Counted from the first letter of the stretch, positions 8,495 through 46,214 are shown. The stretch: DNA of 64,000 nt from an uncultured Gemmatimonadales bacterium (GCA_963742755.1 CAVUMU010000011.1:76568-140567), one strand, 5' to 3'. Numbers and translations: made by a program. The notes: generated by a model from the letters alone, not told the origin.

Positions 8495-8497
8495 GGC

Positions 8498-16574: not shown

Positions 16575-16612
16575 GAGACGTTTTGGGTCCGGCAGAGACG
16601 TTTTGCGGTTGC
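16575..16612 (+). promoter_or_regulatory. Regulon motif copy 1
   Basis: GAGACGTTTTGGGtccggcaGAGACGTTTTGCGGTTGC; TTGCCC-17nt-GAACCT. Confidence 0.75.
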
Positions 16613-16742
16613 CCCGGGGCGCCCGCCGGTCGAACCTTGTATACGAATCACTAATCAATCGATTCTGGTCTCGTCTTGTGCGTTGCTTTGGAACCGCGGC
16701 GCGAGACTCTCTTGCATTTGCCGCGACCGTGAAAGAGGAGAC

Positions 16743-17888
16743 ATGACCTTGTTCTCATCGACGATGCTGCGCACGACATTGGCGACCCTGTTACTCCTGC
16801 CGCACGCCGGCGTGGGCGCTGCACTCGCCCAGAAACGCGACAAGGGTGAGAAGTCCGAGCCGCTGGTCGTCGCCAGCCAGGGCAACCGCCCGTTCGGTGG
16901 ACGGGTGGTGGTAGATGCCGCCGCAGGTACCCGGCTCAGCTGCGACCACGGCTACGTCAACTGGCAGGTTCCGCTCTCCCCGCGCCGGTACCCGCTCCTG
17001 ATGGTGCACGCCAGCAGCAAGAAGACATGGGAAACTACGTTCCACGGCACCGAAGGCTTCAGGGACATCTTCCTCCGTCGCGGCTTCTCGACCTGGATCA
17101 CCGACCTCCCGCGTACCGGCCAGGCCGGCCAGGGCTGCGGGGCAACGTCATACACGCCCGCGCTTTCCGACAAGAGCCGGTTCAACTCCTGGCGGCTCGG
17201 CCTCTGGCTGCTCGAGGAGTCGGCGCCGGACTGGTACCCGGGCGTGCAGTTCCCCACGACCAACGCCGCCGCCCTCGATGAGTTCTTCCGGGTTCAGACC
17301 CCCGAGTTCAATGCTCCGGAGAACGAAGAGGTCGAGACCGATGCCTTAGCCGTCCTGCTGCGTGAGATCGGCCCCTCGGTCGTGCTCACCCATTCGTCGA
17401 CCGGCATCCGCGGGTGGATTACCGCCCTCAAGAGCGACCGCATCGCCGGCATCGTGTCCTACGAGCCCGGGGCTGTCGTGTTCCCCGAAGGCGAGGTGCC
17501 GCCGCCGATCCCGAGAGCCGACGGGACGATGCAGATACCCGGCCGAGCAGTTCCGATGGCGGAATTCATGAAGCTGACCAGGTTCCCCATCCAGATCATC
17601 TGGGGCGACTACATCCCCAAGACCCTCGATCCGGTCAACGTGGGCCAGCGCCTGACTCTCGACAGCCGGCGGATCAACTTCATGCGCTCGCGGCTGTTCG
17701 CCGAGGCGGTCAATCGCCATGGCGGTGACGCGCAGAATCTGCTCCTGCCCGACATCGGCATCCACGGCAACACTCACTTCCCCATGCTGGATGTGAACAA
17801 CGTTCAGATCGCGGACCTCCTATCGCGGTTTCTCAGGGAGAAGGGGCTCGACAGGCGGAAGGATGACAAGCGGAAAGGAAAGGACTAG
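16743..17888 (+). CDS. Secreted alpha/beta hydrolase, esterase-713-like (paralogue 1)
   Basis: RBS AGAGGAG; signal peptide; DLPRTG, THSSTG nucleophile, YEPG acid, GNTHFPM His. Confidence 0.85.
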   Translation: MTLFSSTMLRTTLATLLLLPHAGVGAALAQKRDKGEKSEPLVVASQGNRPFGGRVVVDAAAGTRLSCDHGYVNWQVPLSPRRYPLLMVHASSKKTWETTFHGTEGFRDIFLRRGFSTWITDLPRTGQAGQGCGATSYTPALSDKSRFNSWRLGLWLLEESAPDWYPGVQFPTTNAAALDEFFRVQTPEFNAPENEEVETDALAVLLREIGPSVVLTHSSTGIRGWITALKSDRIAGIVSYEPGAVVFPEGEVPPPIPRADGTMQIPGRAVPMAEFMKLTRFPIQIIWGDYIPKTLDPVNVGQRLTLDSRRINFMRSRLFAEAVNRHGGDAQNLLLPDIGIHGNTHFPMLDVNNVQIADLLSRFLREKGLDRRKDDKRKGKD

Positions 17889-18049
17889 CCGGGCAGCAGC
17901 CGGTCGCGATGGCCAGATGTCGATAACCGGCCCCCGCAGAGCCACGAGGATCCGGAAGGACAACCTGGGAGGGACACGAGTGGCAGCGGCGAACTGCTGG
18001 AACGGCCTCGCGTAGAAAGGACAACCTGCTATAGAAGGAGTGCGGTGTC

Positions 18050-19303
18050 ATGAATCGGACGAGCAGCGCCATCCGGTGGGGCGCCTCCGCAGCCATCTCG
18101 GCCGCGATGCTGGTTGGCCTGGCCGGCACAGGGCAGGCGCAGGGGACCAACTGGCTGAAAAAGTACAAGGACCCCAACAAGGAGTCCATCACACTCAAGC
18201 GCCAGGGCTATTTCTACGTGAACGGCCGGTACTTCACCGACGAGGGCGACCCCAACACGGTGGGCGGGATGCGGATGACCGGCCAGATGTACGTGGAGGT
18301 CCAGGTTCCCAAGCACGTGAAGCACAAATACCCGGTCGTGATGATTCACGGCGGGTCGCAGACGGCGGCCAACTGGATGGGGACGCTCGATGGTGGCGAG
18401 GGCTGGCGCTCGTTCTTCACCGCCAACGGCTATGTGGTCTATCTGGTGGATCAGGTGGGCCGCGGCCGGTCGCCGGCCTACAACCCGCTTCCCGGCTATA
18501 GCCCGACCGACATCTCGACTTACGGGGAGCCGTTCAACCGCCCAGCCAACGTCCTCGGCCGGGAGCGCACCTGGAGCATCCCGGAGCAGTACATGGACTG
18601 GCCCCAGGCGGCCTTGCACACGCAGTGGCCCACCTTTGGCCAGCCGGGGGGGGGCAGGCCGGGCGACGAAGCCTTCGATCAGTTCTTCGCCTCCCAGATC
18701 CAGTCCCGGTTCGATCGGACGGGGAGAGAAATCCAGAAGGACGCCCAGGACGCCGGGGCGGCGTTGCTCGACAAGATCGGACCGGCGATCGTCATCACCC
18801 ACTCGCAGTCGGGGACGATGGGCTTCGCCATCGCCGATGCGCGCCCCAACCTGGTAAAGGTCCTGGTGACGATGGAAGGCGGCGGGAGGCCGACGGCGGC
18901 GACGGGGATTACCTGGCCGCCAGCCTCGATCCCCCTGACCTACTCGCCGGCGGTGACGGATCCCTTGACCCAGTTGAGCTACGTGGAGCAGGCGGCGGAT
19001 CCCACGGGCCTCCTCCTGACTTGCTGGCTGCAGAGGGAGCCGGCCAAGCAACTGCCTAATCTGGCGAGGATGCCACACCTGCTGCTCGTGAGCGAGGCGG
19101 GTTCATCGCAACGGACCAACCACTGCGTCTCGAAATACCTGACCCAGGCGGGTGTGCAGAACGACTATGTGAACCTCAAGGATGTGGGTATTCATGGCAA
19201 CGCGCACATGATCATGGTGGAAAAGAACGCGCTGCAGAGCGCGGCATACGTGGCCAGTTGGATCGAGAGCAAGCTCGAGAAGAAAGGGAAGAAGGACGAC
19301 TGA
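18050..19303 (+). CDS. Secreted alpha/beta hydrolase, esterase-713-like (paralogue 2)
   Basis: Signal peptide; GQMYV, HGG, DQVGRGRS, THSQSG, MEGG, GNAHMIM. Confidence 0.9.
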   Translation: MNRTSSAIRWGASAAISAAMLVGLAGTGQAQGTNWLKKYKDPNKESITLKRQGYFYVNGRYFTDEGDPNTVGGMRMTGQMYVEVQVPKHVKHKYPVVMIHGGSQTAANWMGTLDGGEGWRSFFTANGYVVYLVDQVGRGRSPAYNPLPGYSPTDISTYGEPFNRPANVLGRERTWSIPEQYMDWPQAALHTQWPTFGQPGGGRPGDEAFDQFFASQIQSRFDRTGREIQKDAQDAGAALLDKIGPAIVITHSQSGTMGFAIADARPNLVKVLVTMEGGGRPTAATGITWPPASIPLTYSPAVTDPLTQLSYVEQAADPTGLLLTCWLQREPAKQLPNLARMPHLLLVSEAGSSQRTNHCVSKYLTQAGVQNDYVNLKDVGIHGNAHMIMVEKNALQSAAYVASWIESKLEKKGKKDD

Positions 19304-19393
19304 GGCGGGACCGGTGACGGATGTCGATGGGAAGAGGGGCGCGGGCCTGGGCGGCGGCGCCCCTCTGCGTTGCGCACCCCAACGTTCTCCGAT

Positions 19394-19411
19394 GAGACGT
19401 TTTGCGGTTGC
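19394..19411 (+). promoter_or_regulatory. Regulon motif copy 2 (proximal half only)
   Basis: GAGACGTTTTGCGGTTGC; TTGCGC-16nt-GATTTT. Confidence 0.65.
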
Positions 19412-19627
19412 GCGATGAGGGGAACTACTGATTTTACCCTGAGGAACTCTGCCTTCCTTGGACCCACGCGGCGAAAGCCGCGGCCGCAAGCCCGGGGTAG
19501 TGCCTCCTCGGCGACGGACCCCGAACATGCCGTGCAGGGAATCCATGCTCACCGAGCTGCCGAAGAGGCGGCTCGGCGTTGCCGGTTGGACCACTGGCGG
19601 CACGTCAACTTCGTATTGGAGAGAGCT

Positions 19628-20794
19628 ATGCGAGCAGTAACCAGAATCTTGAGGGGAGCGAGCCTGGCCACGGCAGCGTTGTCCGTGCTGGCTTGGGGCA
19701 CGCGCGACCTGAGCGCGCAGCGACACCAGAGTCGGGGCAAGCAGCCGATCGTCCTGGCCGAGCAGGGAAGCTTATCCGTAGGCGGAAGGGTCGTCACCGG
19801 TTCGGGAACGTTCGACGCGACCATTCCGGGCGCGGGCTCTCGGAACGACGGCCAAGAGTTCCGGATCGATCAGCTGTACGCGCAGTATCAGGTGCCCGTT
19901 AATGCCCGGCGCCTTCCGATTGTCTTTATCCACGGCGGGGCAGGAACCGGCCGAGTATGGGAGACCACGCCTGATGGTCGGGAGGGATTCCAGACGATCT
20001 TCCTGCGTCGAGGCTTCCCGGTCTACATCGTGGACTTTCCCCGTCGGGGCCGGGCGAGCATCCCCTCATTTGTCGGGCCCCTGGGGAATTTGAACGGCAC
20101 CCAGATCATTCCGGCCACCACCTTTGCCGTGGGTAGTCATCAGGCTTGGATAAGCTGGCGCCTGGGCCCCGAGTACGGCAATCACTATGCGAGCTCGCAA
20201 TTCCCCAGGGAGCCAGCAGCCCTCGAGCAGTTCCTCCAGTCAACGGTCCCCCTTTTCTCGGACAACAACCAGGTCATTGTCGACGGAATCGTGGCGCTGC
20301 TCAATCGGATCGGCCCGGCGATACTCGTGACCCACTCGCAATCGGGTATCCACGGCTGGCTCGCGCGGGTGGCGAGTCCAAACGTCAAAGGGATCATCAC
20401 CTTTGAAGGCGGCTACGCCTTTCCTGAGGGAGAAGTGCCGGCGCCTCTACCGCGCTGCAACGGAGACCTGATTGCCCAGGGCACCTCGATGCCTGTAGCT
20501 GACTTCCAGAAGCTCACCGAAGTTCCCATCCTGGTCATCTATGGCGATCACCAGCCGAGCTGTCCCATGCCGAACCTGATACGGGATGGCCAGCAGCTCA
20601 GGCCCATTTTCGGGAGGAACTTCGTCAAGGCTCTGAACGACCGCGGGGGGAATGCTTCGTTTGTGTGGACGCCCGAGATTGGCATCCGCGGGAACACACA
20701 CTTCCTGTTCCTCGATAAAAACAATGTGCAGATCGCGGATATCCTGTCCCGCTTCCTCAATGAGAAGGGGCTGGATAGGCGGGGAAAGAAGTAG
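19628..20794 (+). CDS. Secreted alpha/beta hydrolase, esterase-713-like (paralogue 3)
   Basis: RBS GGAGAG; signal peptide; WETTPDGREGF, THSQSG, FEGG, GNTHFLF. Confidence 0.9.
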   Translation: MRAVTRILRGASLATAALSVLAWGTRDLSAQRHQSRGKQPIVLAEQGSLSVGGRVVTGSGTFDATIPGAGSRNDGQEFRIDQLYAQYQVPVNARRLPIVFIHGGAGTGRVWETTPDGREGFQTIFLRRGFPVYIVDFPRRGRASIPSFVGPLGNLNGTQIIPATTFAVGSHQAWISWRLGPEYGNHYASSQFPREPAALEQFLQSTVPLFSDNNQVIVDGIVALLNRIGPAILVTHSQSGIHGWLARVASPNVKGIITFEGGYAFPEGEVPAPLPRCNGDLIAQGTSMPVADFQKLTEVPILVIYGDHQPSCPMPNLIRDGQQLRPIFGRNFVKALNDRGGNASFVWTPEIGIRGNTHFLFLDKNNVQIADILSRFLNEKGLDRRGKK

Positions 20795-20846
20795 GGTACT
20801 CGGCCTTTTTGCCGGATTGCCTATCTCTTATTTGGAGGAACCGCCG

Positions 20847-22037
20847 ATGCAGCGGTCCACGATGCAACGAATGACTTGGGCGACACTTGCGCTCCTGCTG
20901 ACTACCGGAACCGGCGCCGCGCTCGCGCAGGATGGCCACGCGAGTAAGAAGGGGCCGCTCGTCATAGCCAAGCAGGGCTACTTCTTCGTCGGCGGCACGT
21001 ACCATACCTTCAACAACCAGCAGTACATCTCGGGTCAGGCGTACGTCGAGTACCAGATCCCCCAGAATGTGAAGCACCCCTACCCGATCGTGATGATCGA
21101 AGGTTTCGGGCTGACTGGCACCAACTTCACCGGAACGCCCGATGGGCGCGATGGCTGGGCCCAGTACTTCCTGCGTGAAGGGTACGCCGTCTACGTGTAC
21201 GACCAACCCGGCCGCGGCCGGTCCGCGTGGGTAGCCAGCGCGTACGGCGTCATTCCGCAGCCGACCTCCGCCACCGCCAGTCAAAATGCATTCTCGGCGC
21301 CCGAGGGTCCCAACCTCTATCCCATGGCCCATCGGCACACCCAGTGGCCGGGCACGGGCCTCATCGGCGACCCGATCTTCGACCAGTTCGCCGCGTCCAC
21401 ATCGCCGGCAATCGGCGGCGGGCTGGTTTACGAGGCACTGAACCAGAAAGCTGGGGCAGAGCTGCTGGATCGTATCGGCCCGGCGATCCTGCTCGGGCAT
21501 TCGCAGGGGGGGCTGATCCTTTGGCCCATCGCGGACGCGCGTCCAGCCCTGGTGAAGGCTCTGGTGGCCTTCGAGCCCGGCGGGCCTCCGTTCTACGGCG
21601 TCAGGTTTCTCGGCCCGCCGACCTGGTTCGAGAATGCCGCCCTGAGCTTTCCCTGGGGCATCACCACCGGCCCGATGACCTATGCGCCGGCAGTCACGAA
21701 TCCGTCCGACCTCCAGCCAGTGCAGGAAGCGACGTCGCAGGGGCCCAATCTGGTCCGCTGCTGGCGGCAGACGGAGCCCGCTCGTACGCTGATCAACCTG
21801 AAAGGGATTCCCACCGTCATCGTTACGTCTGAGGCGAGCTCCCCCGCCGCCCGCGACCATTGCACCTCGCAGTTTCTCACCCAGGCGGGCGTGCAGAACA
21901 CGCACATCCGTCTCGAGAACGAAGGTATCCGCGGGAACGGGCACATGATGATGCTGGAGGAGAACAGCGACCAGATCGCGGCGGTGGTTAATCAGTGGCT
22001 GAAGTCGAACGTCAAAGAACGGCGAGGTCGCAGATAA
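20847..22037 (+). CDS. Secreted alpha/beta hydrolase, esterase-713-like (paralogue 4)
   Basis: RBS GGAGG; signal peptide; TPDGRDGW, DQPGRGRS, GHSQGG, FEPG, GNGHMMM. Confidence 0.9.
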   Translation: MQRSTMQRMTWATLALLLTTGTGAALAQDGHASKKGPLVIAKQGYFFVGGTYHTFNNQQYISGQAYVEYQIPQNVKHPYPIVMIEGFGLTGTNFTGTPDGRDGWAQYFLREGYAVYVYDQPGRGRSAWVASAYGVIPQPTSATASQNAFSAPEGPNLYPMAHRHTQWPGTGLIGDPIFDQFAASTSPAIGGGLVYEALNQKAGAELLDRIGPAILLGHSQGGLILWPIADARPALVKALVAFEPGGPPFYGVRFLGPPTWFENAALSFPWGITTGPMTYAPAVTNPSDLQPVQEATSQGPNLVRCWRQTEPARTLINLKGIPTVIVTSEASSPAARDHCTSQFLTQAGVQNTHIRLENEGIRGNGHMMMLEENSDQIAAVVNQWLKSNVKERRGRR

Positions 22038-22061
22038 TCGCCGGCCCGGGCTCGTTGTCCC

Positions 22062-22090
22062 AAGGCTGCCCAGCGGGGCAGCCTTTTTTT
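22062..22090 (+). terminator. Rho-independent terminator
   Basis: AAGGCTGCCC-AGCG-GGGCAGCCTT followed by a T-run. Confidence 0.8.
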
Positions 22091-22097
22091 GACCTTA

Positions 22098-23963: not shown

Positions 23964-24059
23964 CTTGCCAAGCTACGTTCCGACCTCGACCTCAACAACT
24001 CGCACTGCGTCACCTTCCCCTCACGTTTTGCCAGTCAACCCGAGGCTAGAGTAAGGCGC

Positions 24060-24097
24060 GAGACGTTTTGGGACTGGGAGAGACGTTTTGCGGTTGC
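24060..24097 (+). promoter_or_regulatory. Regulon motif copy 3
   Basis: GAGACGTTTTGGGactgggaGAGACGTTTTGCGGTTGC; TTGCAG-17nt-CATTGT. Confidence 0.75.
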
Positions 24098-24251
24098 AGG
24101 TCCGGTCCCGGCCGAACATTGTGTCTCATACTCGAAAGAACAACCAATCCGTACGGGCCTACCCCCAGGCTCCGCGCCCGGTTTTCTAGTTCCCCCAGGT
24201 GGACTCCGGAGACTGTCGCCTTTTGCACCCTGTGCCTGAAAGGAGCTCAGT

Positions 24252-24824
24252 ATGAACCGGAACGGGGCAATACGCGCCGTCATAACGCCCCTATGGATCA
24301 TTGCCCTCAGCAGCGCGGCAGTAGAAACCAGCCAAGCCCAGGTGATCAAGCTGAAGGCCAAACTGGTCGGGTTCCAGGAGGTGCCCTCCCTGTTGACCAC
24401 TGCGACGGGCCAATTCACCGCCACGGTGGACCCGACCGGAGCGTCGATGACCTTCAGGCTGACGTACTCCGGTCTCCTGGCGGACGCGACCCAGGCTCAT
24501 ATCCACTTTGGTCAGCCGGGAGTAAATGGCGGCGTCATGGTGTTCTTCTGCACCAACCTGACCCCGCCAGTCGGCGTACCAGCACCTCAACCCTGTCCGC
24601 TACGAAGTGGGACGGTCGAAGGCACCGTAACGTCAGCGGACGTGGCCGGTCCCTTGGCGCAAGGGGTCACGCCAGCCAGCCTCGGAGCCAACTTCGACGA
24701 CGTCATCAGTGCAATCAGGAGCGGTAATAGCTACGCCAATGTCCACTCGACGCGATGGACCGGAGGCGAAATTAGGGGGCTAGTCAAGCGCGGGTCCGGA
24801 GGTTCCGACGACGACGACGACTAG
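24252..24824 (+). CDS. Secreted CHRD-domain protein
   Basis: Signal peptide; LVGFQEVP, QAHIHFG, YANVHS...GGEIRG CHRD motifs; acidic DDDDD tail. Confidence 0.85.
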   Translation: MNRNGAIRAVITPLWIIALSSAAVETSQAQVIKLKAKLVGFQEVPSLLTTATGQFTATVDPTGASMTFRLTYSGLLADATQAHIHFGQPGVNGGVMVFFCTNLTPPVGVPAPQPCPLRSGTVEGTVTSADVAGPLAQGVTPASLGANFDDVISAIRSGNSYANVHSTRWTGGEIRGLVKRGSGGSDDDDD

Positions 24825-24882
24825 CGCGGCTGAAATTATCGCATGACGCTTGGATCCACACCCCAACACGAAGGAGAGCTCG

Positions 24883-26307
24883 ATGCAAGGATGTAGCAGC
24901 ATGACTCGGCAAGTGACACGTGCCTTGGCCGCGGCGGCCCTGGTCGCGCTGGTCGCGACGAGCGTCTCGGCGCAGGCGATCGGCAAGGGTAGAGAGGGAG
25001 CTTTCACAGCGGGACCGCTGAATCTTAAGGACCAGGGCAGCTTCTTCATTGGTGGCGTAAACAAAAGCACGATTTACGCGACGACTTCCACGCCGACAGG
25101 GCCCGGGGGCTCGCCGCCAGGAACGCCCCCAGTCAACGCCTCGATCGTCATCGGTCAGATGTACGTGCAGTTCCAGGTCCCGGAAGGCTGGAACTCCAAC
25201 AAGGCTAAGAAGGGCCAATACCCCGTCGTCATGGTGCACGGCTCCACCCACACTGGCGCGGCCCTCGAATCAACCCCCGAATTCAAGGAAGGCTGGGCGC
25301 CCTACTATGTGCGCAAGGGCCTCCCGGTGTTCGTGGTTGACCAGTCCGGCCGCGGCCGCTCCGGGTTCGACGAGTCCGTAGTACATGAGGGGAAGGCACA
25401 GCTGGTTACCGGTGGAGGTGTTCCCGCCCCTGGCGCGACAATTATTCCGAACTTCGGCAGGATCACCTCGAACGGCTCCTGGACCGCGTGGTTCGGGCAC
25501 CTGGTCGCGCCAGGTACGGCCACGCCATGCACCGATATCCTGACGTGTGAGCTCATGCCGCACGGTTGGCGTCCGGATGATCCCAGCCTGCCGACGGTTC
25601 ACCCCAATCCGGCGGGGTACCTCCCCGCGTTCCCGTACCTTGGGATAGGTCTCGACCCCGGCCAGAAGCAGGGCGGGAGCCCCGGCAGCAACACCCCCCC
25701 GGGTGTGGACCCGGCCCTCTTCGGACCAACGCCCTACGGTCCTGAAGACGCCTACAAGCTGCACTACTACAAGCAGCTGGTGCCGAACGCGGAAGTGACG
25801 CTCCCCGGCTCCGTCTGCGAGACCTGCGTCCCCACGGCCCTGCCCGCTACCGCCACCTGGACCCCGTACGCCCTGGCACTGCTGGTGGAGAAGATCGGCA
25901 AGGTTAGCGGCGGGGCAGTTGTGGCAACCCACTCGCAGTCAGGAATCATGGGCCACCACATGGTCCGTCTCCTGAGGCAACGGGGAACGCTCAAGTACCT
26001 CAAAGGCTTGATCACCGTCGAGGGAAGCTGCTCCTTTGCGAACAGCGGCCTCACGGCAGCGGACTTCGCCCAGGTTCCCTACCTGGCGCTCAAGGGCGAC
26101 TACACGGTATTCAGTGCTGGGTGCCAAGCCAGCGTCGACGCTATTCGCGCGGCCGGCGGCCCGTCCCAGGCGGACTACATCCAGCTGGACGCCGCCAGCT
26201 ACGGCGGGCGGTTTAACGGGGTCACCCACATGATGATGGACGACCTGCTGGCACTGCCGGTTGCGGACGTCATGCTCGACTGGGGTAATCGGTACATCAC
26301 GGAATAA
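24883..26307 (+). CDS. Secreted alpha/beta hydrolase, esterase-713-like (paralogue 5)
   Basis: RBS AAGGAG; GQMYVQF, DQSGRGRS, THSQSG, VEGS, GVTHMMM; Pro-rich insertions. Confidence 0.85.
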   Translation: MQGCSSMTRQVTRALAAAALVALVATSVSAQAIGKGREGAFTAGPLNLKDQGSFFIGGVNKSTIYATTSTPTGPGGSPPGTPPVNASIVIGQMYVQFQVPEGWNSNKAKKGQYPVVMVHGSTHTGAALESTPEFKEGWAPYYVRKGLPVFVVDQSGRGRSGFDESVVHEGKAQLVTGGGVPAPGATIIPNFGRITSNGSWTAWFGHLVAPGTATPCTDILTCELMPHGWRPDDPSLPTVHPNPAGYLPAFPYLGIGLDPGQKQGGSPGSNTPPGVDPALFGPTPYGPEDAYKLHYYKQLVPNAEVTLPGSVCETCVPTALPATATWTPYALALLVEKIGKVSGGAVVATHSQSGIMGHHMVRLLRQRGTLKYLKGLITVEGSCSFANSGLTAADFAQVPYLALKGDYTVFSAGCQASVDAIRAAGGPSQADYIQLDAASYGGRFNGVTHMMMDDLLALPVADVMLDWGNRYITE

Positions 26308-26328
26308 AGGACCGCAGGACCAACAACC

Positions 26329-26369: not shown

Positions 26370-26374
26370 CCAGT

Positions 26375-29624: not shown

Positions 29625-29662
29625 GAGACATTCTGGGCGCGGGAGAGACATTTTGCGGTTGC
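29625..29662 (+). promoter_or_regulatory. Regulon motif copy 4
   Basis: GAGACATTCTGGGcgcgggaGAGACATTTTGCGGTTGC; TTGCCA-17nt-AATTTT. Confidence 0.75.
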
Positions 29663-29808
29663 CAGGACGGACCCCGCGCTGAATTTTGTAATCGAACCAG
29701 AACAACTACCCACCTACCTCGCTCGACAGCGTCGCCCCTCATCCCTGAGGGGCGGCCCTGAGGGTGTTGCCGTGCACCGATTCCTCTCTGGCGTAAGAAG
29801 GAAAACCC

Positions 29809-31035: not shown

Positions 31036-31128
31036 GTCGGGCCGTGGTGAGACCCCAGACCTCACCGCGATCCGGCTGAGGACACGCTCCAGTTCTGCCC
31101 TGGAAGTACACCCTGAGAGGAGGACGTC

Positions 31129-32967
31129 ATGCGTAAAGGCAAGACCGGCGACCAGGCCGAGACGTACAAGGTCGAGGTGGAACCCTCCGATCCGGGTGGG
31201 ACATCCCGGCGCGGATTCATCGCGGCCAGCGCCGCGGGGCTGGCTGCCGCCACTATAGGTAGCGGGGCGGTCTCGAGCGCGGCGGCCTCGGAAGCAAGGC
31301 CGATCTTTACCGAAAGCTCCAAGAAGCGGACCCTGCTCAAGGGTGGCGTGGTCCTCACCCTGGACAAGAATGTCGGGGATTTCGAGAAGGCGGACGTGCT
31401 GATCGAGGGCAAGAAAATCGTCGCCGTAGGTCCCAATCTCAGAGCTGGCGGTGCCCAGGAAATCGACTGTCGGGGCACGATCGTGTGTCCCGGGTTCATC
31501 AGTACCCACCACCACCAGTACTACACCATCCAGCGGGGCATCAACGCCGACGGCTTCATCGTCTTCGGCTCCAACCCGCCGAGCCCCTTTCAACAACCGG
31601 GCGCCTGGCCCTTCGAGGCCTACAGCTCGATCCAGAACATCTGGACCGCCGGCCGGATCGGACCCGCATCGGCACCCACCTGGGACATGATGCGTCCCCC
31701 CTACGACCCCGAGGACCTCTACCTCTCGGAGCTGGTGGCGTCCCTGAGTCAGATCACTCAGGGCCTCACCATGGGAACCGACACCTCCCAGGCGTCACAC
31801 ACGCCGGCCCACACCGATGCCATGATCCAGGGCATCATGGATTCAGGGCGGCGGACGCTGTACGACTACAGCAACGGCACCAACCGGTCGGCCCAGTTCC
31901 CCGACCAGCCGAACGAGTATCCCGGCGCCATCGGGAACACCACGTCGGGCATTGGCCGGCTGGCCAAGCAGTACTTCAGCTCCAAGGACCAGCTGGTAAC
32001 GTTGGGCTTCCCCGGCGGGCCGACCCAGCTGGCGGGCACCACCTACACCGGGTGGCAGCTGGGCCGCGAGTTTGGGGCGTTCCTCAATGCGCACAGCGTC
32101 GGTTCGCCGCAATCAATCGTTGACGCGGCGGCCGATCCGCGGAACGGCAACGACTGGTCGGACGTCACCCGGGTGCACGCCGTCCGGTGGCAGGATAACT
32201 CCATCTCCCAGGTCAGCTACGACGCGTACACCAACGCCTCACGGGCGTGGCAGATCCTGGCGGATCGGGGCGGCCACGTTTCCATCGCCGTGATCATCGA
32301 GATGCAGATGCGGCATGGCATGCCGCCGTTCCAGATGGCGCTCAACCACGGGATCCTCCCGAGCCTGAGTCCGGACGTGGACACCAACATGACCCCGGAT
32401 CCGTTCTCGATGATGCGGGGCGCCTTCTGCATCCAGCGGGCGCTGGCCAACGACCTGGCCTTCGCCGAAAGCAATCCGGACAACCTGCCGGTCCCGCAAG
32501 TGATCACCTGCCGCCAGGTGCTGGAGATGATGACCGTCGCTGGAGCCGCCGGAAGTGGTGTGCTGGATAAGGTCGGCACGCTCACTCCGGGCAAAGAGGC
32601 GGACATCGTGGTGTTGGAGACCAGCAACCTCAACATCGCGCCGGTCAACAACGCGCCGGGGGCCATAGTGACCATGATGGACACCCGGCATGTGCGAGAT
32701 GTTCTGATCGCCGGCAAGGTGGTGTTCAGGAGCGGCAAGCTGATAGGCTGGAACGCCGACAAGCTAGTCCGGGATCTCGAGAAATCGCGGGAGCGGGTTC
32801 TCGCCCGGATTCGGGGGCCCAACGGCGACGGCAGCGGACCTGGGCGAATCGGGTCGATTCCCAAGGGCATGAACAGCGAGGGGAATCCGTACCGGCCGAA
32901 CTTCCTGGGCTCCTGCTGCTACAACGGCCAGAACCCGCTGGCACCGCATTACGTGCTGCGGCCGTAA
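31129..32967 (+). CDS. Tat-exported amidohydrolase-superfamily protein (copy A)
   Basis: SRRGFIAAS twin-arginine signal; PGFISTHHH metal motif; GTLTPGKEADIV. Confidence 0.85.
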   Translation: MRKGKTGDQAETYKVEVEPSDPGGTSRRGFIAASAAGLAAATIGSGAVSSAAASEARPIFTESSKKRTLLKGGVVLTLDKNVGDFEKADVLIEGKKIVAVGPNLRAGGAQEIDCRGTIVCPGFISTHHHQYYTIQRGINADGFIVFGSNPPSPFQQPGAWPFEAYSSIQNIWTAGRIGPASAPTWDMMRPPYDPEDLYLSELVASLSQITQGLTMGTDTSQASHTPAHTDAMIQGIMDSGRRTLYDYSNGTNRSAQFPDQPNEYPGAIGNTTSGIGRLAKQYFSSKDQLVTLGFPGGPTQLAGTTYTGWQLGREFGAFLNAHSVGSPQSIVDAAADPRNGNDWSDVTRVHAVRWQDNSISQVSYDAYTNASRAWQILADRGGHVSIAVIIEMQMRHGMPPFQMALNHGILPSLSPDVDTNMTPDPFSMMRGAFCIQRALANDLAFAESNPDNLPVPQVITCRQVLEMMTVAGAAGSGVLDKVGTLTPGKEADIVVLETSNLNIAPVNNAPGAIVTMMDTRHVRDVLIAGKVVFRSGKLIGWNADKLVRDLEKSRERVLARIRGPNGDGSGPGRIGSIPKGMNSEGNPYRPNFLGSCCYNGQNPLAPHYVLRP

Positions 32968-33045: not shown

Positions 33046-34437
33046 TTAGTCGCGGTCGTGACCCTTGCCGGTCTTGCACTCAGTGGCCTTGGGCGCGTTG
33101 CGAATGTTCTCGTTGGCCCAGTCCAGCATGAGGTCGAAGACTTCCAGATTGTTGGTGCCCAGCATGTTCATGTGGGTGGTTCCCAGGAATCGCCCGCCCA
33201 TGAAGCCCGCGTCATCCACATCGATGACTTCGAACTTCGCGGTCCCCAGCCCGGCGGCGCGCCGGGCGCTGACGGCCGCTTCGACGGCCCAATTCCCCTG
33301 CCGGATGGTGGAGGACCGGTAGTCGCCGTTCACGACCAGAACCGGAACGTTATCGAAGTCAGCCGGCGTGAGCCCGGAGGCGACAAGATCGGTTGCCCCC
33401 TCTGGAATGAGGAGGCCCTTCAGGAGGTGCAGCTTGCCCCGTTCCCTTAGGATCCGGACGAGGTGCATGGCCTGCGCCGACGCCTGCGAGTGAGGCGAGA
33501 CGATGGCTCCTCCGAGACCTTCCAGCAGGTCTGCCAGGGCCCGCGGGCTCCAGGTGTTCGACGGTGCGACGGTGGACGGAACGCAAGCCGCGCAGAAGGA
33601 GGTCGGAAGCGTGGCTTCGGTATTCGGCACCAGCTGCTTGAAGCTCTGCAAGGCCAGGTACTGGTGATTGGCCGCAAGCGGTGTCGGGCCAATGGCGCCC
33701 TCGCGCGCCGCGATCTTCGGATCGATGGAGAACGGCCATGGAGGGATCGGGTACTGGGGCAGATAGCTGCCATGGGCCGGCGAGGGAGGGGTGGTCTCCG
33801 CCGGATCCGGGTCGCCCGGATCGCTATGACGTATCAGTGTCCCGGTAACGATGTTCGACCCGGCTGGGATCAGATGTCCGAACCAGCTGGTCCACACCGA
33901 GTTACTGGTCCCACCGCCCAAGGTTGGGATCAGGGTCACGTTCCCGGTGACTCTGGCCTCATGAAAGATGGAGCGGTCGAAACCGGACCGGCCCCGTCCT
34001 GGCTGGTCAACGACGAAGGTGGGGATGTGGTTGCGCACCGAATAGGCCAGCCAGCCTTCCCGCCCATCCGGCGTGGCATCCAGGGCCGCACCGCTGTAGC
34101 CCGACCCGTGCACCATGACCAGCGGCCAACCTTTGCGCTTCTGCGGTATCTGGAACTGCACGTACATCTGCCCGATGAGGATCTCTTCGGGCTGCCCCAT
34201 CGTGACTGCCGATGAGGCGTAGGTGGTGACTTTCGATACGCCACCCACGAAGAATGCTCCCTGGTCGCAGACACTCAGGGCCTGGCCCGACAGATACCGA
34301 TTTTTCAGTGGGTTGACCCAGCCGGACGGGCCGGTAACGGATCCCTGTGCCGGCGCACTGCTCGCCACCACTGCGACAAGTGCGGTGCCGGCCAGCGCGG
34401 GTCCGAGGTACCGAGTCCACCGTGCATTACGTCTCAT
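33046..34437 (-). CDS. Secreted alpha/beta hydrolase, esterase-713-like (paralogue 7)
   Basis: Signal peptide; GQMYVQF, TPDGREGW, PHSQAS, PEGA, GTTHMNM. Confidence 0.85.
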   Translation of the reverse strand: MRRNARWTRYLGPALAGTALVAVVASSAPAQGSVTGPSGWVNPLKNRYLSGQALSVCDQGAFFVGGVSKVTTYASSAVTMGQPEEILIGQMYVQFQIPQKRKGWPLVMVHGSGYSGAALDATPDGREGWLAYSVRNHIPTFVVDQPGRGRSGFDRSIFHEARVTGNVTLIPTLGGGTSNSVWTSWFGHLIPAGSNIVTGTLIRHSDPGDPDPAETTPPSPAHGSYLPQYPIPPWPFSIDPKIAAREGAIGPTPLAANHQYLALQSFKQLVPNTEATLPTSFCAACVPSTVAPSNTWSPRALADLLEGLGGAIVSPHSQASAQAMHLVRILRERGKLHLLKGLLIPEGATDLVASGLTPADFDNVPVLVVNGDYRSSTIRQGNWAVEAAVSARRAAGLGTAKFEVIDVDDAGFMGGRFLGTTHMNMLGTNNLEVFDLMLDWANENIRNAPKATECKTGKGHDRD

Positions 34438-34501
34438 AGAAATTCTCCTAAATGGTCTTGCGAGTGCAGAGCTGTGACTGCAAATGGAAAAAGGCGAACC
34501 G

Positions 34502-35815
34502 TCAGCGGCTTCCAGGCCGGCCGCAGCTGTTCTTCTTGGGCTGGTGACGGATGTTCCGGTCGGCCCAGTCGAGGATCACGTCGAACACCTCGAGGTGGCC
34601 GGTGCCCATCATCATCATGTGGGTGACGCCCTTGAACCGTTCTCCGTACTTCGGATCGGCCAGCGACATGAACTCGGCTCGCCCGCCCGCGGCGTTGATG
34701 GCGTCCACGTTGCCACGGTAGAGCGCGTCGCTGAGGCCGGGGTAGTAGGGGCTGACCGTCAGGTAGGGGATGTTGCGGTAGTCCGCCGGAACCGTTCCGT
34801 TGCTGGCGAATGAGCTGCCTACCCCATCAATGGTGATCAGGCCCTTCAGCTTATCGAGCTTTCCCATCTCCTTCAGGTAGCGAACCATGTGATGCCCCAC
34901 GCTGCCCGACTGCGAGTGGGTGGCGACCACCGCGCCCCCGAGGCCGGCTACCAGCTTGGCCAGGTCCTGGCCCGACCAGGTGTCCGCCGGATTGACCGTG
35001 CTCGGCGTGCAGGTGGCACATGTGGAGGTCGGCAGCGTCACGTTCGTGTTGGGCACGCCCCACTTGTAGTGCTCCAACGCCAGGGCCCGGTTGTTGGCCG
35101 GGAGGGGTGCCGGCCCGATGGCACCGATGCGCGCTTCGATGTCGGGGTCGACCGCGTCGAAGTTATGCGCGGGATGGAAGGTGCAGTGGGCCGGGTTAGC
35201 CGCGCACTGTGGGTCGCCCGGATCGCCATGCTTGATCAGGGTGCCGGTGGTGATGTCCGTGCCCCCGATGAGGTGACCGAACCAGGCCGTCCAGATCCCG
35301 CTGCTGCTGGTGTTGGCGAGGCTCGGAAAGCCCGCCAGGTTGCCGGTGCCGATGCGCTCGTTGATGAAGGAGCGGTCGAAGCCGGAGCGCCCCCGTCCCG
35401 CCTGATCGACCACGTAGGTGGGGAGGTCGTTGCGAACCGCGTAGGCGAACCAGCCCTCTTTCCCATCGGGCGTGGATTCCAGGCCCGATCCCGAGTAGCC
35501 GCCGCCGTGCACCATGATGAGCGGCCAGCCGCGCTGTTTCTTGGGCACCATGAACTGCACGTACATCTGGCCAATGATGAGCTCTTGCCAGGTTGTCCCC
35601 TCGACCACGCCATTGGCGAACTTGGTGAGCTTGGGCACGCCGCCGACGAAGAAGGCCCCGAAATCGCAGATCGCCAGGTCATCGAGCAGGTGCCGCTGCT
35701 GCGTCGGGTAGGCCGTCTGCGCGGTTGCCGTTCCGGCCGTTGCAAGCGACGCCGCAACCGCTGCCAGCGACAGGCTACAGTACACTGCTCCCTTCACCAG
35801 GCGACTGTGTCGCAT
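34502..35815 (-). CDS. Secreted alpha/beta hydrolase, esterase-713-like (paralogue 8)
   Basis: RBS GGAGAG, ATG 35815; TPDGKEGW, THSQSG, IDGV, GVTHMMM. Confidence 0.85.
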   Translation of the reverse strand: MRHSRLVKGAVYCSLSLAAVAASLATAGTATAQTAYPTQQRHLLDDLAICDFGAFFVGGVPKLTKFANGVVEGTTWQELIIGQMYVQFMVPKKQRGWPLIMVHGGGYSGSGLESTPDGKEGWFAYAVRNDLPTYVVDQAGRGRSGFDRSFINERIGTGNLAGFPSLANTSSSGIWTAWFGHLIGGTDITTGTLIKHGDPGDPQCAANPAHCTFHPAHNFDAVDPDIEARIGAIGPAPLPANNRALALEHYKWGVPNTNVTLPTSTCATCTPSTVNPADTWSGQDLAKLVAGLGGAVVATHSQSGSVGHHMVRYLKEMGKLDKLKGLITIDGVGSSFASNGTVPADYRNIPYLTVSPYYPGLSDALYRGNVDAINAAGGRAEFMSLADPKYGERFKGVTHMMMMGTGHLEVFDVILDWADRNIRHQPKKNSCGRPGSR

Positions 35816-35900
35816 AACCACTCTCCAATTCAGTAGGGCTTGAGGCTGCGGCAAGCTGAGACAGAATCCCAACTAAGGGTCGGGCAGAGAGCGGCGCAGC

Positions 35901-35937
35901 GCAACCGCAAAACGTCTCGCATCGCCCCGAATGTTTC
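35901..35937 (-). promoter_or_regulatory. Regulon motif copy 5 (leftward)
   Basis: Minus strand GAAACATTCGGGGcgatgcGAGACGTTTTGCGGTTGC; TTGCGC-17nt-GACCCT. Confidence 0.7.
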
Positions 35938-35950: not shown

Positions 35951-35988
35951 GGGACATTTTGGGACCAGGTGGGACGTTTTGCGGTTGC
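35951..35988 (+). promoter_or_regulatory. Regulon motif copy 6 (rightward)
   Basis: GGGACATTTTGGGaccaggtGGGACGTTTTGCGGTTGC; TTGCGC-17nt-GAACAT. Confidence 0.75.
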
Positions 35989-36123
35989 GCGCGGGCGTGG
36001 CGAGCCCGAACATAGACGGGAACCGCATCCCGCGAATCCGTCTCCTACATCCGCCAGCGACCAAGCGATCCAGATCGCCGCAGGCTCCAATCCCGAGCGA
36101 CCTACCCTCTGAGAGGAGGCTTC

Positions 36124-37914
36124 ATGCGTAAACCCACCCCCCGCGATAAGCCCCACCCGTACAAGGAAGACCCGGAGTCGGCCCCGACCAGTGGCTCGCG
36201 TCGCGAGTTCCTCGCGGCCAGCGCCGCGGGGCTCGCTGTCGTAGCAGTAGGACCAGGGGCAGCGAACCCCGCCGCTGCGCTGAGCAGCGGTACCAAGGAG
36301 ATCGTTCGGAACCTCGAGCCCAAGCGGAAGCTGCTCAAGGGTGGCATCGTGCTCACCCTCGAGTCGAGCGGCGATTTTGAGAAGGCCGACGTGCTTGTCG
36401 AGGGGAAAAAGATCGTCGCGATCGGGCCGAATCTTGGAGGAGGGGGCGAAAAAATCGATTGCTCCGGGACCATCGTCATGCCGGGGTTCATCACCACCCA
36501 CCATCACCAGTACGAGACCCCAGCCCGAAGCGTCATTCCCGATGGACTGCTTGCCGGTGCCTGGCCCCAGGAGAGCTACGGGTCGGTGGTGCAGAACATC
36601 TGGACCGCGGGTCGGATCACGGGTGTATGGGACCTTGGGCGACCCCCAATGGACCCGGAAGACGTCTATCTCGCGGAGCTGGTAGCCTCACTGAGCCAGC
36701 TCACCGAGGGCATCACCTGCGGAGTGGACACGTCGCAGAGCTCCCACACGCCCCAGCACACCGACGCCATGATCCAGGGGTTGATGGACTCCGGGGCCAG
36801 GGCGGTCTACGACTACTCCGGTGGCACCAACCGTTCGGCCGAAGACCCGAATCAGCCATACGAGTACCCCGGCGCCATCGGGAACAACACCTCCGGGATC
36901 GGCCGGCTGGCGGTGCAGTATTTCAGCTCAACCGATCAATTGGTCACGTTGGCCCACGCGGGAGGGACGGGAGCTGCGTTTCCGGGCGCTCCGTACACCG
37001 GGTGGCAGCTTGCCCGTCACTTCGGGGCCTCGATCAACAACCATAACGTCGGCAACCCCGCAGGTGTCATCGCTGCCGCCGCCGACCCCCGGAACAACGA
37101 GAGAGACTGGTCCGACGTCACCCTGGTCCACTGCGTCCGGTGGAATGACGCCCCTCTGGCTCAGCACAGTTACCCCCCGCATGGCTACCCCAATCCGAGT
37201 ACGTCCACGGCGTGGCAGATATTCGCCGACAAGGGGGGACACGCCTCGATCGCCAACATCATCGAGATGCAGATGCGGCACGGGATGCCTCCGTTCCAGC
37301 AGGCGCTCAATCACGGCATCCTGCCCAGCCTCAGTCCGGACGTCGACACCAACATGACCACCGACCCGTTCTCGCTGATGCGGGGCGCCTTCTGTCTGCA
37401 GCGGGCGTTGGCCAACGATCTCGCGTTCCCCATCAGTAACCCAGGTGGTCTGCCGGTTCCGCAGCTGATCACCGCGCGGCAGTGCATCGAAATGGCCACC
37501 ATCGCCGGTGCGGCATCGGCCCAGCTGAGCAGCAAGGTGGGCACGCTCAAGGTCGGGAAGGAAGCCGATATCGTGGTGCTGGACGCGCGAAACATCAACA
37601 TCACCCCGATGAACAACGTGCCCGGTACGATCGTCACCATGATGAATCCCAGACATGTCCGGGACGTGTTCGTCGCGGGCAAGCAAGTGTATCGCGACGG
37701 CAAACTGACGGGCTGGAACATGGAGAAGCTGATGCGCGACCTGGAGAAGTCGCACCAGCGGATTCTGGCTCGGATCAGGGCGACCCCGAAGTCCGGGGCC
37801 CTTCCGCCGGGCAACAACAGCTCGGGCGGCAGCGCGTACCGGCCGAACTTCCTGGGCTCCTGCTGCTACAATGGGCAGAACGCGACGGCTCCGCATTACA
37901 CCTTGAGACCGTAG
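36124..37914 (+). CDS. Tat-exported amidohydrolase-superfamily protein (copy B)
   Basis: SRREFLAAS Tat signal; PGFITTHHH; close paralogue of 31129-32967 including the C-terminal YRPNFLGSCCYNGQN. Confidence 0.85.
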   Translation: MRKPTPRDKPHPYKEDPESAPTSGSRREFLAASAAGLAVVAVGPGAANPAAALSSGTKEIVRNLEPKRKLLKGGIVLTLESSGDFEKADVLVEGKKIVAIGPNLGGGGEKIDCSGTIVMPGFITTHHHQYETPARSVIPDGLLAGAWPQESYGSVVQNIWTAGRITGVWDLGRPPMDPEDVYLAELVASLSQLTEGITCGVDTSQSSHTPQHTDAMIQGLMDSGARAVYDYSGGTNRSAEDPNQPYEYPGAIGNNTSGIGRLAVQYFSSTDQLVTLAHAGGTGAAFPGAPYTGWQLARHFGASINNHNVGNPAGVIAAAADPRNNERDWSDVTLVHCVRWNDAPLAQHSYPPHGYPNPSTSTAWQIFADKGGHASIANIIEMQMRHGMPPFQQALNHGILPSLSPDVDTNMTTDPFSLMRGAFCLQRALANDLAFPISNPGGLPVPQLITARQCIEMATIAGAASAQLSSKVGTLKVGKEADIVVLDARNINITPMNNVPGTIVTMMNPRHVRDVFVAGKQVYRDGKLTGWNMEKLMRDLEKSHQRILARIRATPKSGALPPGNNSSGGSAYRPNFLGSCCYNGQNATAPHYTLRP

Positions 37915-39246: not shown

Positions 39247-39279
39247 TCCTGACAGCACTGTTCTTCCTCCGGAGCACCG

Positions 39280-39438: not shown

Positions 39439-39443
39439 CCTCC

Positions 39444-41465: not shown

Positions 41466-41487
41466 TGTCTTTCCGAGGACTGAAACC

Positions 41488-42144: not shown

Positions 42145-42191
42145 GCCACGTCGATCTTTTCTGAATTCGTCTACCGCTTCGAAAGTTGGCA

Positions 42192-44900: not shown

Positions 44901-44910
44901 GCCCCCTGGC
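44887..44910. terminator. GNRA hairpin between convergent genes
   Basis: GCCAGGGGGC-GTAA-GCCCCCTGGC overlapping the stop codon. Confidence 0.45.
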
Positions 44911-44918
44911 CCCTTGGC

Positions 44919-46088
44919 CTACCGGTCCCTCTTACCGCTCCTCCGCACCTGATCCTGGATCCAGTCGAGAACTACTCCGGCAATCTGGTCGCTGTTCTTC
45001 TCGATGAACATGAAGTGTCCGTTTCCCCTGATTCCGATATCCTGCAGCTTGAGCCAGGTAAAGTTCCCGTCCACTCCCGCCTGCCTGAGGAATCGCACCG
45101 TGCAAGGATCCCAGGCGGTGTTGTACCCCGACGGGGCGGTGAGCAGCATGATGGGCATCCGCTGCAGATTCGGGAGCTCGCGCGCCGGACTGGCCTGGAC
45201 CCAACAGGTCGCGACACCGGGATCCTTGGGGAGGGGCACGAAGCTCAGCTGCGACGGGTCGGAGACTGCGGGGCTGTAGGTGATCGGGTTGCGAGTAAGT
45301 CCCCACGCAAACGTTGGTCCCGCCGCGAACCCCATACTCGGCTCGTCGCGCGCGACCGGTGGTCCGCCCGGCTCGAGCTGGATCAGGGCTTTCACCAGAT
45401 TCGGACGGCGATCCGCGACCAGCCAGGCCGGCGCTCCCGGCTGCGAGTGCGGGATGACAATCGAAGGTCCGATTCGGTCCAGCAGTGCCACCAGGCCGTC
45501 GGCCGTCAGCTGTTCCTGAAGGACGGCATTGGTGAGCGCGTCCGACTGCGACGAGAGGAACTGCTCGAACGTGGGATCGCCGTTGACCGCGGGGCCAACC
45601 CACTGGGTGTGCAGCCGCGCCGCCGGCCAGAAGTTGTAGCGCTCAATGGCGGCCCAGAGCGACTGGGCCCTGGTCGCGTTGGACACATCACCCAAAGGCC
45701 CGAGTTGCGAATGGTAGGCAGACCGGCCCCGCGCGGGCTGATCCACCACATAGACCGCGAACCCCCGGCGCACGAAGTACTGGGTCCAGCCCTCGCGACC
45801 ATCCAGGGTCTGGCTCCAGCCGGCGCCAATCTGGCCGCCGCCGTGCACCAGGATGATCGGGTAACGCTGCGTCTTGTTCTGCGGGATCACGTACTCGACG
45901 TACATGGCACCGACCATCTGGTCGTTGGCGTTGTGGCTTCCACCCACGAAGAAATTCCCGAACTTCGCGATCACCAGCGGTTGTTTGTCCCCCCTGTTCC
46001 CCTTGTTGCCGTGGTCCTGCGCCTGTCCTGTGGTGGCGACAACGACCAGGGCGCACACCGCCAGGCGAAGCATGCCAGTGAATTTCAT
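44919..46088 (-). CDS. Secreted alpha/beta hydrolase, esterase-713-like (paralogue 9)
   Basis: Signal peptide; MYVEY, HGGG, DQPARGRS, PHSQPG, LEPG, GNGHFMF. Confidence 0.9.
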   Translation of the reverse strand: MKFTGMLRLAVCALVVVATTGQAQDHGNKGNRGDKQPLVIAKFGNFFVGGSHNANDQMVGAMYVEYVIPQNKTQRYPIILVHGGGQIGAGWSQTLDGREGWTQYFVRRGFAVYVVDQPARGRSAYHSQLGPLGDVSNATRAQSLWAAIERYNFWPAARLHTQWVGPAVNGDPTFEQFLSSQSDALTNAVLQEQLTADGLVALLDRIGPSIVIPHSQPGAPAWLVADRRPNLVKALIQLEPGGPPVARDEPSMGFAAGPTFAWGLTRNPITYSPAVSDPSQLSFVPLPKDPGVATCWVQASPARELPNLQRMPIMLLTAPSGYNTAWDPCTVRFLRQAGVDGNFTWLKLQDIGIRGNGHFMFIEKNSDQIAGVVLDWIQDQVRRSGKRDR

Positions 46089-46194
46089 AACCCGTCCTCT
46101 CTTTACTTACCGCGGTCGCCCGAGGGCAAACCCCGCGGGAGCTCGGTGAGCTCGAGGTTGTTCTGCTCCCTCAGCATGGGGCTGCGGGACCAGG

Positions 46195-46214
46195 TGTCAA
46201 CCGCATTTTGTCTC
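46195..46214 (-). promoter_or_regulatory. Regulon motif copy 7 (degenerate, with canonical -35)
   Basis: Minus strand GAGACAAAATGCGGTTGACA, then 16 nt and CATGCT, upstream of paralogue 9. Confidence 0.5.

Follow-up and report, generated by a model that had tools for sequence, protein, structure and literature searches.

A stretch of 64,000 nucleotides (nt) from the metagenome-assembled genome (MAG) of an uncultured Gemmatimonadales bacterium (G000:C11:76568-140567, here called the window; assembly G000, 3.45 Mb, 65.7% G+C, 11 contigs) carries, between positions 16575 and 46214, seven copies of a short box, W1 to W7, each in front of a gene for an exported protein. That these boxes are functional co-regulatory promoter elements we hold to be highly probable. 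With less assurance, though still as the explanation we favor, we propose from sequence comparison that they are the composite promoter-operators of a local regulon, and that a 264-amino-acid AraC-like protein encoded upstream of W1 acts on them as a class-II-type activator. The restriction of the motif to one locus, the geometry of the sites, the AraC-type domain of the candidate protein and the linkage of gene and box in relatives together give in silico support to the initial annotation of this DNA, which had one activator co-ordinately controlling the hydrolases, amidohydrolases and CHRD protein of the locus.

The motif had been described as present in seven copies, and the counts bear this out: GAGACRTTTTGCGGTTGC has six matches in the window at three mismatches or fewer (five exact, one with a single mismatch), where 100 shuffles lead one to expect 0.03, and a variant stands at 46214(-). 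The six 18-mers lie at 16595+, 19394+, 24080+, 29645+, 35901-35918(-) and 35971+; five of the positions originally reported (16575, 24060, 29625, 35951 and 35937(-)) are the starts of a distal half-site, the 18-mer starting 20 nt further on (19 nt at 35937(-)). Over both strands of the 3.45-Mb genome, GAGACGTTTTGCGGTTGC occurs 4, 2, 0, 3, 22 and 191 times at 0, 1, 2, 3, 4 and 5 mismatches, respectively, and at two mismatches or fewer no further copy was found outside the locus. The copy at 46214(-), GAGACAAAATGCGGTTGA, has five mismatches to GAGACGTTTTGCGGTTGC, four at the centre and one at the final base, and retains both outer blocks of the box; the gapped form GRGAC-N4-TGCGGTTG has exactly seven matches in the genome, and these are the seven sites of the initial annotation. 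The half-site core GRGACRTTYTG is found 12 times genome-wide, ten of them in this locus, as against once for the reversed pattern; the two cores outside the locus lie inside long open reading frames (ORFs) and are likely coding. Three near-matches were taken as chance, namely C10:231533(-), which has three mismatches, sits in an AT-rich stretch and is without the geometry described below, and C10:1123452 and C5:24880, which are inside long ORFs and likely coding. Scatter over the genome, which would have spoken for a mobile repeat, is thus not what we see: the motif is confined to the promoters of this locus, and all copies at two mismatches or fewer stand within 30 kb and face genes, unlike a dispersed repeat such as a repetitive extragenic palindrome (REP), a miniature inverted-repeat transposable element (MITE) or an insertion sequence (IS) end. 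Rfam 15 gave no match in the window at gathering score, and at E<=5 its only matches in 16000-47000 were three chance-level ones to eukaryotic RNAs (E 1.3-2.9).

The geometry of the copies is that of a site fused to a promoter. The half-site is 13 bp long, GNGACRTTYTG(C/G)G, and stands directly 5' of a -35-like TTGC, the proximal half-site terminating 1 nt before it. An exact distal half-site, GRGACRTTYTGGG, lies 20 bp upstream in four copies (16575, 24060, 29625 and 35951), and a degenerate one, GAAACATTCGGGG, 19 bp upstream at 35925-35937(-), so that for these five copies the second half-site reported earlier stands. The final four bases of the 18-mer, TTGC (TTGA in W7, giving TTGACA), open a -35-like hexamer, and nAnnnT follows 16-17 nt after TTGCnn or TTGACA in every window copy (7/7), just as had been stated, and in 16 of 17 sites when those of three relatives are included, mostly as GAnnnT; the chance of nAnnnT at that spacing, estimated from base composition, is about 0.06 per copy. 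If transcription starts 7 nt past the -10, which would put the 5' ends near 16644, 19442, 24129, 29693, 35869(-), 36020 and 46166(-), the proximal half-site would occupy about -49 to -37 and the distal one about -69 to -57. A scan of 16400-36300 for consensus-like sigma-70 promoters returned none, against 2.9 expected in shuffles. Ahead of the genome's single 16S rRNA gene (G000:C5:187054-187553) stand TTGACA and TTGACT-17-TACGAT elements, which provide a usable housekeeping-promoter reference for this genome, and set against these canonical elements the -35 TTGC and -10 (G/C)AnnnT of the regulon promoters look like weak housekeeping promoters. The site thus adjoins a poor -35 and the -10 stands 16-17 nt on, as in a class II activator-dependent sigma-70 promoter. 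As first proposed, the seven copies lie between genes and face those for exported proteins: in each, a start codon with a GGAG-type Shine-Dalgarno-like site lies 60-296 nt past the -10, and the ORF that follows has an N-terminal signal peptide when read by eye, of the twin-arginine type at 36124. The candidate regulator gene and the boxes are as follows.

15737..16531, + strand: candidate regulator, 264 amino acids, ATG at 15737 and in-frame TTG at 15734.
16575..16637, + strand: W1, distal 16575-16587, proximal 16595-16612, -35 TTGCCC 16609-16614, -10 GAACCT 16632-16637, predicted start near 16644.
19394..19435, + strand: W2, proximal only 19394-19411, -35 TTGCGC 19408-19413, -10 GATTTT 19430-19435.
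24060..24122, + strand: W3, distal 24060-24072, proximal 24080-24097, -35 TTGCAG, -10 CATTGT 24117-24122 (alternative GAACAT 24114-24119, spacer 14).
29625..29686, + strand: W4, distal 29625-29637, proximal 29645-29662, -35 TTGCCA, -10 GAATTT 29681-29686.
35876..35937, - strand: W5, degenerate distal 35925-35937 (19 bp), proximal 35901-35918, -35 TTGCGC 35899-35904, -10 GACCCT 35876-35881; back to back with W6.
35951..36013, + strand: W6, distal 35951-35963, proximal 35971-35988 (GGGAC...), -35 TTGCGC, -10 GAACAT 36008-36013.
46173..46214, - strand: W7, variant proximal box 46197-46214, -35 TTGACA 46195-46200, -10 CATGCT 46173-46178, no distal half-site.

The boxes have been kept while the genes behind them diverged. 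Among the six main copies the mean pairwise DNA identity is 0.96 over the 18-mer, 0.55 over the distal half-site and 0.24-0.36 elsewhere, and the proteins encoded downstream share 24-50% identity among the hydrolase paralogues and 63% between the amidohydrolases. Moreover, the box precedes non-homologous first genes, for a CHRD protein, an amidohydrolase and hydrolases. A box that is 96% identical, within flanks at background and before diverged paralogues, argues for selection and not for recent duplication.

The candidate regulator ends 44 nt before the distal half-site of W1. Its N-terminal part of about 125 residues possibly has a receiver-like fold, and its C-terminal part of about 110 residues is a divergent AraC-type double helix-turn-helix (HTH). 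Searches of Pfam and NCBIfam assigned it to no family and gave no HTH_18 or HTH_AraC match even at E<=10; residues 150-174 and 200-225 each gave a weak hint of a single HTH. A family search at E<=0.001 gave 703 cluster representatives (clusters at 50% identity), and a profile of 62 sequences of the family (A1), compared by hhalign with six HTH_18 domains of the same genome, scored 96.2% (E 2.2e-9, 104 columns), the alignment running from query 130-237 to template 2-107 of 110, i.e. over the whole two-HTH domain. By profile-profile comparison, then, the protein has the two-HTH domain of the AraC/XylS family, and this, with the linkage in relatives given below, upholds the gene at 15734/15737-16531 as the regulator candidate, as it had been in the initial annotation. 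The best PDB profile match of A1 is SoxS (E 0.018); at E<=0.01, 38 of the 62 family members match HTH_23, nine HTH_AraC and six HTH_18, the latter two weakly. A1 matched just one further gene of the genome, G000:C10:1252419-1253497(-) (E 1.5e-9, profile positions 20-256), an HTH_18-positive AraC-type gene that is directly followed by a receiver-domain gene. The N-terminal half aligned only weakly with receiver domains (hhalign, 31%, 31 columns), residues 51-81 being in register with helix 3/strand 4, and when this register is extrapolated Leu48 takes the position of the phospho-acceptor Asp. The protein has no match to Pfam Response_reg and is not among the 87 Response_reg matches of the genome, and its N-terminal domain would be a pseudo-receiver at best. 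Named database entries of the family come from Longimicrobiales and Gemmatimonadota, and five of six read 'hypothetical protein', the sixth 'AraC-like DNA-binding protein'.

Gene and box travel together in close relatives. Among 101 sampled genomes of the same genus, the regulator is present in G000, in G094 (57% identity) and in G005 (45%, over two contigs), with a weak match in G017. G094 has six boxes of bipartite layout, five of them on the contig of the regulator and one starting 34 nt past its stop codon, and in G005 a diverged box lies about 60 nt after the regulator; a bipartite box thus follows the regulator in all three genomes that have both an orthologue and DNA downstream of it. 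A search of metagenomes from the three-sequence alignment returned 18 loci, 12 of which include the 3' end of the regulator and downstream DNA (regulator identity 41-93%; two pairs are near-duplicates), and in 12/12 a bipartite box is found from 33 nt before to 84 nt after the regulator stop. Of the other six, one ends at the stop; another is truncated inside the regulator gene and has a box ahead of the hydrolase gene that comes before it, an order also seen in G094; and four, which share just the N-terminal 90-100 residues, have no box. The genes that follow boxes in the metagenomic loci encode QGxF(F/Y)(V/I)GG hydrolases, amidohydrolases with a signal for twin-arginine translocation (Tat) or a CHRD protein. 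In G087, also of the genus, four boxes were seen and the regulator was not found, its contigs breaking exactly where G094 has the regulator (positions 4028-11327 missing). Over the genus outside G000 the scan gave 35 matches in 23 genomes, against 15 for the reversed-pattern control; without G094 (6), G087 (4) and G016 (2), there are 23 matches in 20 genomes, near noise, and the leftover matches, single and with one mismatch, were inside long ORFs in most cases inspected. A site in G031, a genome of another family, which has two mismatches and no distal half-site and lies after ATP-synthase genes, was judged unrelated.

Further out, the regulator family and the box part company. The family is found in 56 of 301 genomes sampled class-wide, and a single genome may hold as many as five copies; in the window's own family it is missing from all 58 other genomes sampled, as against its presence in about a third of those from two other families, and the distribution is therefore patchy. 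G117 and G278, which score best among the relatives, are members of another family, a hint of loss or horizontal transfer. In 28 loci of distant members from other families (33-42% identity in the ten measured) the box was not found, with the exception of L166 and possibly L159; L166 has GACATTTTAATCG, 7 nt, then TAGACGTTTTGAGTCTTGC, with a 20-bp period. Nor was there an excess of direct repeats at offsets of 19-21 bp in the distant loci, and these 28 therefore lend no support to a general rule by which every member of the family would have 20-bp direct repeats right after its gene. Since the box is missing from most of them, the operator is specific to one orthologous group. A related and distinct bipartite site, GTGACAAT(A/C)(C/G)GTG ... 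GAGACRTTTT(C/G)(G/A)GGTTGC followed by (G/A)ATATT, occurs in three genomes of the genus, at 9487(-) of L054 (G016:C151), in L095 (G102) and in L096 (G081); in G016 it stands before the gene of a non-exported protein of 191 residues, and a related regulator may use it as its operator.

On these grounds it can be hypothesized that two protomers of the AraC-like protein would sit on the same side of the double helix, one at each of the tandem half-sites, which are spaced by two turns (20 or 19 bp), and that the promoter-proximal protomer, beside the -35, would recruit RNA polymerase, so that the housekeeping polymerase is helped at a poor promoter. Nine serine hydrolases resembling esterase-713 and SulE, two twin-arginine amidohydrolases and one CHRD protein would be switched on jointly, and the products would probably leave through the adjacent type II secretion system. 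The single-box promoters W2 and W7 might be served by one protomer, and W7, with its perfect TTGACA, may be partly constitutive.

Several points weigh against this proposal. The distal half-site is absent at 19394 and 46214(-), where the description of a paired site does not hold, and binding by two protomers would not be universal. At 24080 the best-conserved hexamer, GAACAT, is at a spacer of 14, and the hexamer at spacer 17 is CATTGT. The regulator fails Pfam HTH_18 (PF12833) and HTH_AraC (PF00165) and is not among the eight HTH_18 matches of the genome, so that its assignment to AraC rests on profile-profile comparison. In G016 (80% complete, 270 contigs) there are 2-3 boxes, which front a CHRD-like lipoprotein and a hydrolase orthologue, and the regulator orthologue was not detected beyond a weak partial match at a contig end. 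The related genomes are kin and not independent samples, and the regulator may be linked to the box simply through its place in a cluster where every promoter has one. Finally, activation is favored over repression only on account of promoter weakness, and the start sites and co-expression are predictions from sequence.

The boxes could instead be operators of another factor, such as the LysR protein encoded at 14163-15353, a NarL-type protein or an unlinked one, with the AraC-like gene as passenger or target, which we think unlikely. The LysR gene adjoins the regulator divergently in the window and is within the cluster in G094, in loci L125 and L128 the AraC-like gene is immediately preceded by one for a regulator with receiver and GerE domains, and the boxes of G016 have no detected orthologue to go with them. 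However, the window has no NarL-type gene next to the cluster, the immediate upstream gene in L125 and L128 is NarL-type and not LysR, and only the AraC-like gene adjoined a box in every locus examined; LysR and NarL proteins, moreover, typically recognize dyads or closely spaced sites, and 13-bp direct repeats with a 20-bp period are not of that kind. The LysR protein, which had been put forward as an alternative binder, thus gains no support, its gene not being next to the regulator in G094. A little less likely again is that the AraC-like protein binds the boxes but represses, or acts both ways, covering the DNA beside the -35 for as long as no inducer frees it. Occlusion would be possible from a site that adjoins or overlaps the -35, and the perfect TTGACA of W7 might need no activation, but the -35 is TTGC in six of the seven window copies and the -10 (G/C)AnnnT, far weaker than the TTGACA/TAnnnT upstream of the rRNA gene, there is no consensus-like promoter in 16400-36300, and most AraC/XylS proteins at this position activate.

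That the conserved block is the extended -35 of an alternative sigma factor of the extracytoplasmic function (ECF) type, with no separate activator, seems to us quite improbable. It would account for the fixed distance from the box to a conserved hexamer that often reads cGAAC, but the scanned ORFs of the window include no sigma-factor domain, the A2 and T6 of the hexamer and the TTG of the -35 are sigma-70-like, and the usual ECF pattern of GGAAC and CGT is absent at these sites. Furthermore, no second -35/-10 accompanies the half-site that is repeated 20 bp upstream, and this points to a DNA-binding protein more than to a sigma factor. Hardly credible, in our view, is that the boxes have no regulatory role and are leftovers of duplicated or converted genes, or copies of a small mobile repeat. 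The downstream genes are indeed paralogues, but their divergence contrasts with the near-identity of the box between background flanks, the unrelated CHRD protein and amidohydrolase genes are preceded by it as well, it is kept across species whose regulators are 41-93% identical, and it is not scattered in the genome.

The proposed activation by the AraC-like protein has parallels in known systems. AraC at araBAD I1-I2, XylS at Pm and RhaS/RhaR are AraC/XylS activators at class II promoters, and the present arrangement resembles AraC I1-I2, XylS and RhaS in its direct half-sites about two turns apart, the proximal one at a weak -35, and in a regulator gene beside its targets; as in AraC/XylS sites, the half-site, of at least 13 bp, is long enough for a two-HTH protomer. 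It differs in having an unrelated half-site sequence, a DNA-binding domain so divergent that Pfam HTH_18/HTH_AraC miss it, an N-terminal domain that is neither cupin nor sugar-binding, and two proximal-only sites among the seven. The monomeric AraC-family activators MarA/SoxS/Rob come to mind with SoxS as the top PDB match, and single-box W2 and W7 would fit a monomer beside the -35. Those proteins, however, are without the extra domain or differ in it, and marbox sites occur once per promoter in either orientation, whereas here the sites are mostly tandem pairs in one orientation. YesN-like response regulators combine a receiver with an AraC-type output domain, and the candidate likewise has an alpha/beta-looking N-terminal domain of about 120 residues followed by an AraC-type domain; unlike them it has no Pfam Response_reg match, the hhalign value is 31%, and Leu48 is at the extrapolated Asp position.

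A further comparison is with HrpX of Xanthomonas, and with HrpB of Ralstonia/Burkholderia, which we group with it. In the system of the plant-inducible promoter (PIP) box, on which HrpX acts, a -10-like element stands at a fixed distance. The AraC-type activator HrpX is described as binding the PIP box TTCGB-N15-TTCGB, a direct repeat of 20-bp period upstream of many operons (PMC7831014). An AraC-type regulator and the 20-bp period are the only two features shared, for the half-site here, GNGACRTTYTG(C/G)G, does not follow the PIP-box consensus. HrpX, of about 476 residues, serves type III secretion and effectors in plant pathogens, whereas the present protein has 264 residues and comes from a Gemmatimonadales MAG, in a setting of a type II secretion operon and hydrolases exported by the Sec or Tat route. 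At L125 (4189-5142) and L128 (9136-9819), the gene directly upstream of the AraC-like gene encodes a NarL-type response regulator (receiver plus GerE), and in the window its place is occupied by the LysR gene 14163-15353(-). This order is reminiscent of HrpG upstream of HrpX, and by analogy suggests a two-step cascade like HrpG -> HrpX.

The transcription units behind the boxes, as predicted from strand and short gaps (unit 1 being a putative operon on the strength of its strand and a 161-nt gap), and the secretion operon are as follows.

16743..19303, + strand: unit 1, two exported esterase-713/SulE-like alpha/beta hydrolases, 16743-17888 and 18050-19303.
19628..22037, + strand: unit 2, two exported hydrolases, 19628-20794 and 20847-22037, followed by a strong terminator-like hairpin at 22062-22085.
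24252..26307, + strand: unit 3, exported CHRD-domain protein 24252-24824 and hydrolase 24901-26307.
29983..32967, + strand: unit 4, exported hydrolase 29983-31035 and twin-arginine-signal TRZ/ATZ-like amidohydrolase 31129-32967.
33046..35815, - strand: unit 5, two exported hydrolases, 34502-35815 and 33046-34437.
36124..37914, + strand: unit 6, twin-arginine-signal amidohydrolase; may extend over same-strand genes to 44900 (2-oxoglutarate (2OG) oxygenases, SGNH-TPR, SagB-like dehydrogenase-TPR).
44919..46088, - strand: unit 7, exported hydrolase of the same family.
46457..55746, + strand: type II secretion operon, pseudopilins, PilN-like, GspM, secretin, GspE, GspF and GspG.

The nine paralogous alpha/beta hydrolases share the signature QGxFFVGG ... 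YPxVMxHGG ... HSQSG, with the nucleophile Ser and the His kept in all nine. Compared with solved structures, the paralogue 20847-22037 is nearest to the carboxylesterase 1QLW (E 1e-30) and to SulE, a herbicide esterase (PMC10356948). The two Tat-signal amidohydrolases belong to the chlorohydrolase/deaminase (TRZ/ATZ-like) group and have, by eye, signals of the type SRREFLAASAAGLA, and the remaining box-preceded product is the one CHRD-domain protein. The complete type II secretion operon starts 240 nt beyond W7 and probably encodes the export route of the regulon products. W7, the sole box of the intergenic region before that operon, faces away from it. In G094 (L048, G094:C36), the ATG of the first pseudopilin gene (14901) comes 33 nt after the end of a proximal-only box at 14850-14867; there the secretion genes may belong to the regulon, possibly with a nearly leaderless mRNA.

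Genes without a box are interleaved with the units at 22098-23963(-), 26375-28357(-), 28533-29600(+) and 38590-44900(+), and their products include membrane-anchored SGNH/GDSL hydrolase-TPR proteins, a TPR protein that also has a SagB-type dehydrogenase domain, and two 2OG-Fe(II) oxygenases, one of them of family TIGR02466. By eye, a TIGR02466-like oxygenase and a 941-residue ORF in the SagB-TPR position recur in G094 after a box and amidohydrolase, and L125 also holds a 2OG oxygenase. Two of the 5' leaders are long. That of unit 2 (19442-19627), of about 190 nt, has a GC-rich hairpin with a GAAA loop, CGCGGC-GAAA-GCCGCG, which is recognisable in the G016 orthologue (L053, G016:C145, after 7982), and the leader as a whole folds with z = -2.1 against shuffles; that of unit 4 is about 290 nt.

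Gemmatimonadota are a common soil phylum with few cultured members, and to our knowledge almost nothing is known of their transcription control; a limited full-text literature search, judged by titles, found no publication on it or on a regulon of this type. The operator-promoter logic proposed here is classical, and the value of the locus is that of a well-supported annotation and an entry point, not of a new principle. It offers a precise and testable triplet of regulator, operator and regulon, with a 13-bp half-site, seven promoters, predicted starts and a candidate protein, and it assigns a candidate function to a family whose named entries are mostly labelled 'hypothetical protein'. The inducer of the regulator, if found, would point to the compounds that these enzymes degrade. 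A broader reading, possible in our judgment but rather doubtful, joins these threads into a Gemmatimonadota-wide AraC-like family with a phosphorylation-dead receiver-like sensor, of which this would be the first member with an inferable operator, its locus a patchily inherited, self-contained 'secretome island'. If that were true, the island would bring together the regulator, a type II secretion system and operator-tagged operons for enzymes like SulE/esterase-713 and like triazine hydrolases, and would serve the extracellular breakdown of esters and amides in soil.

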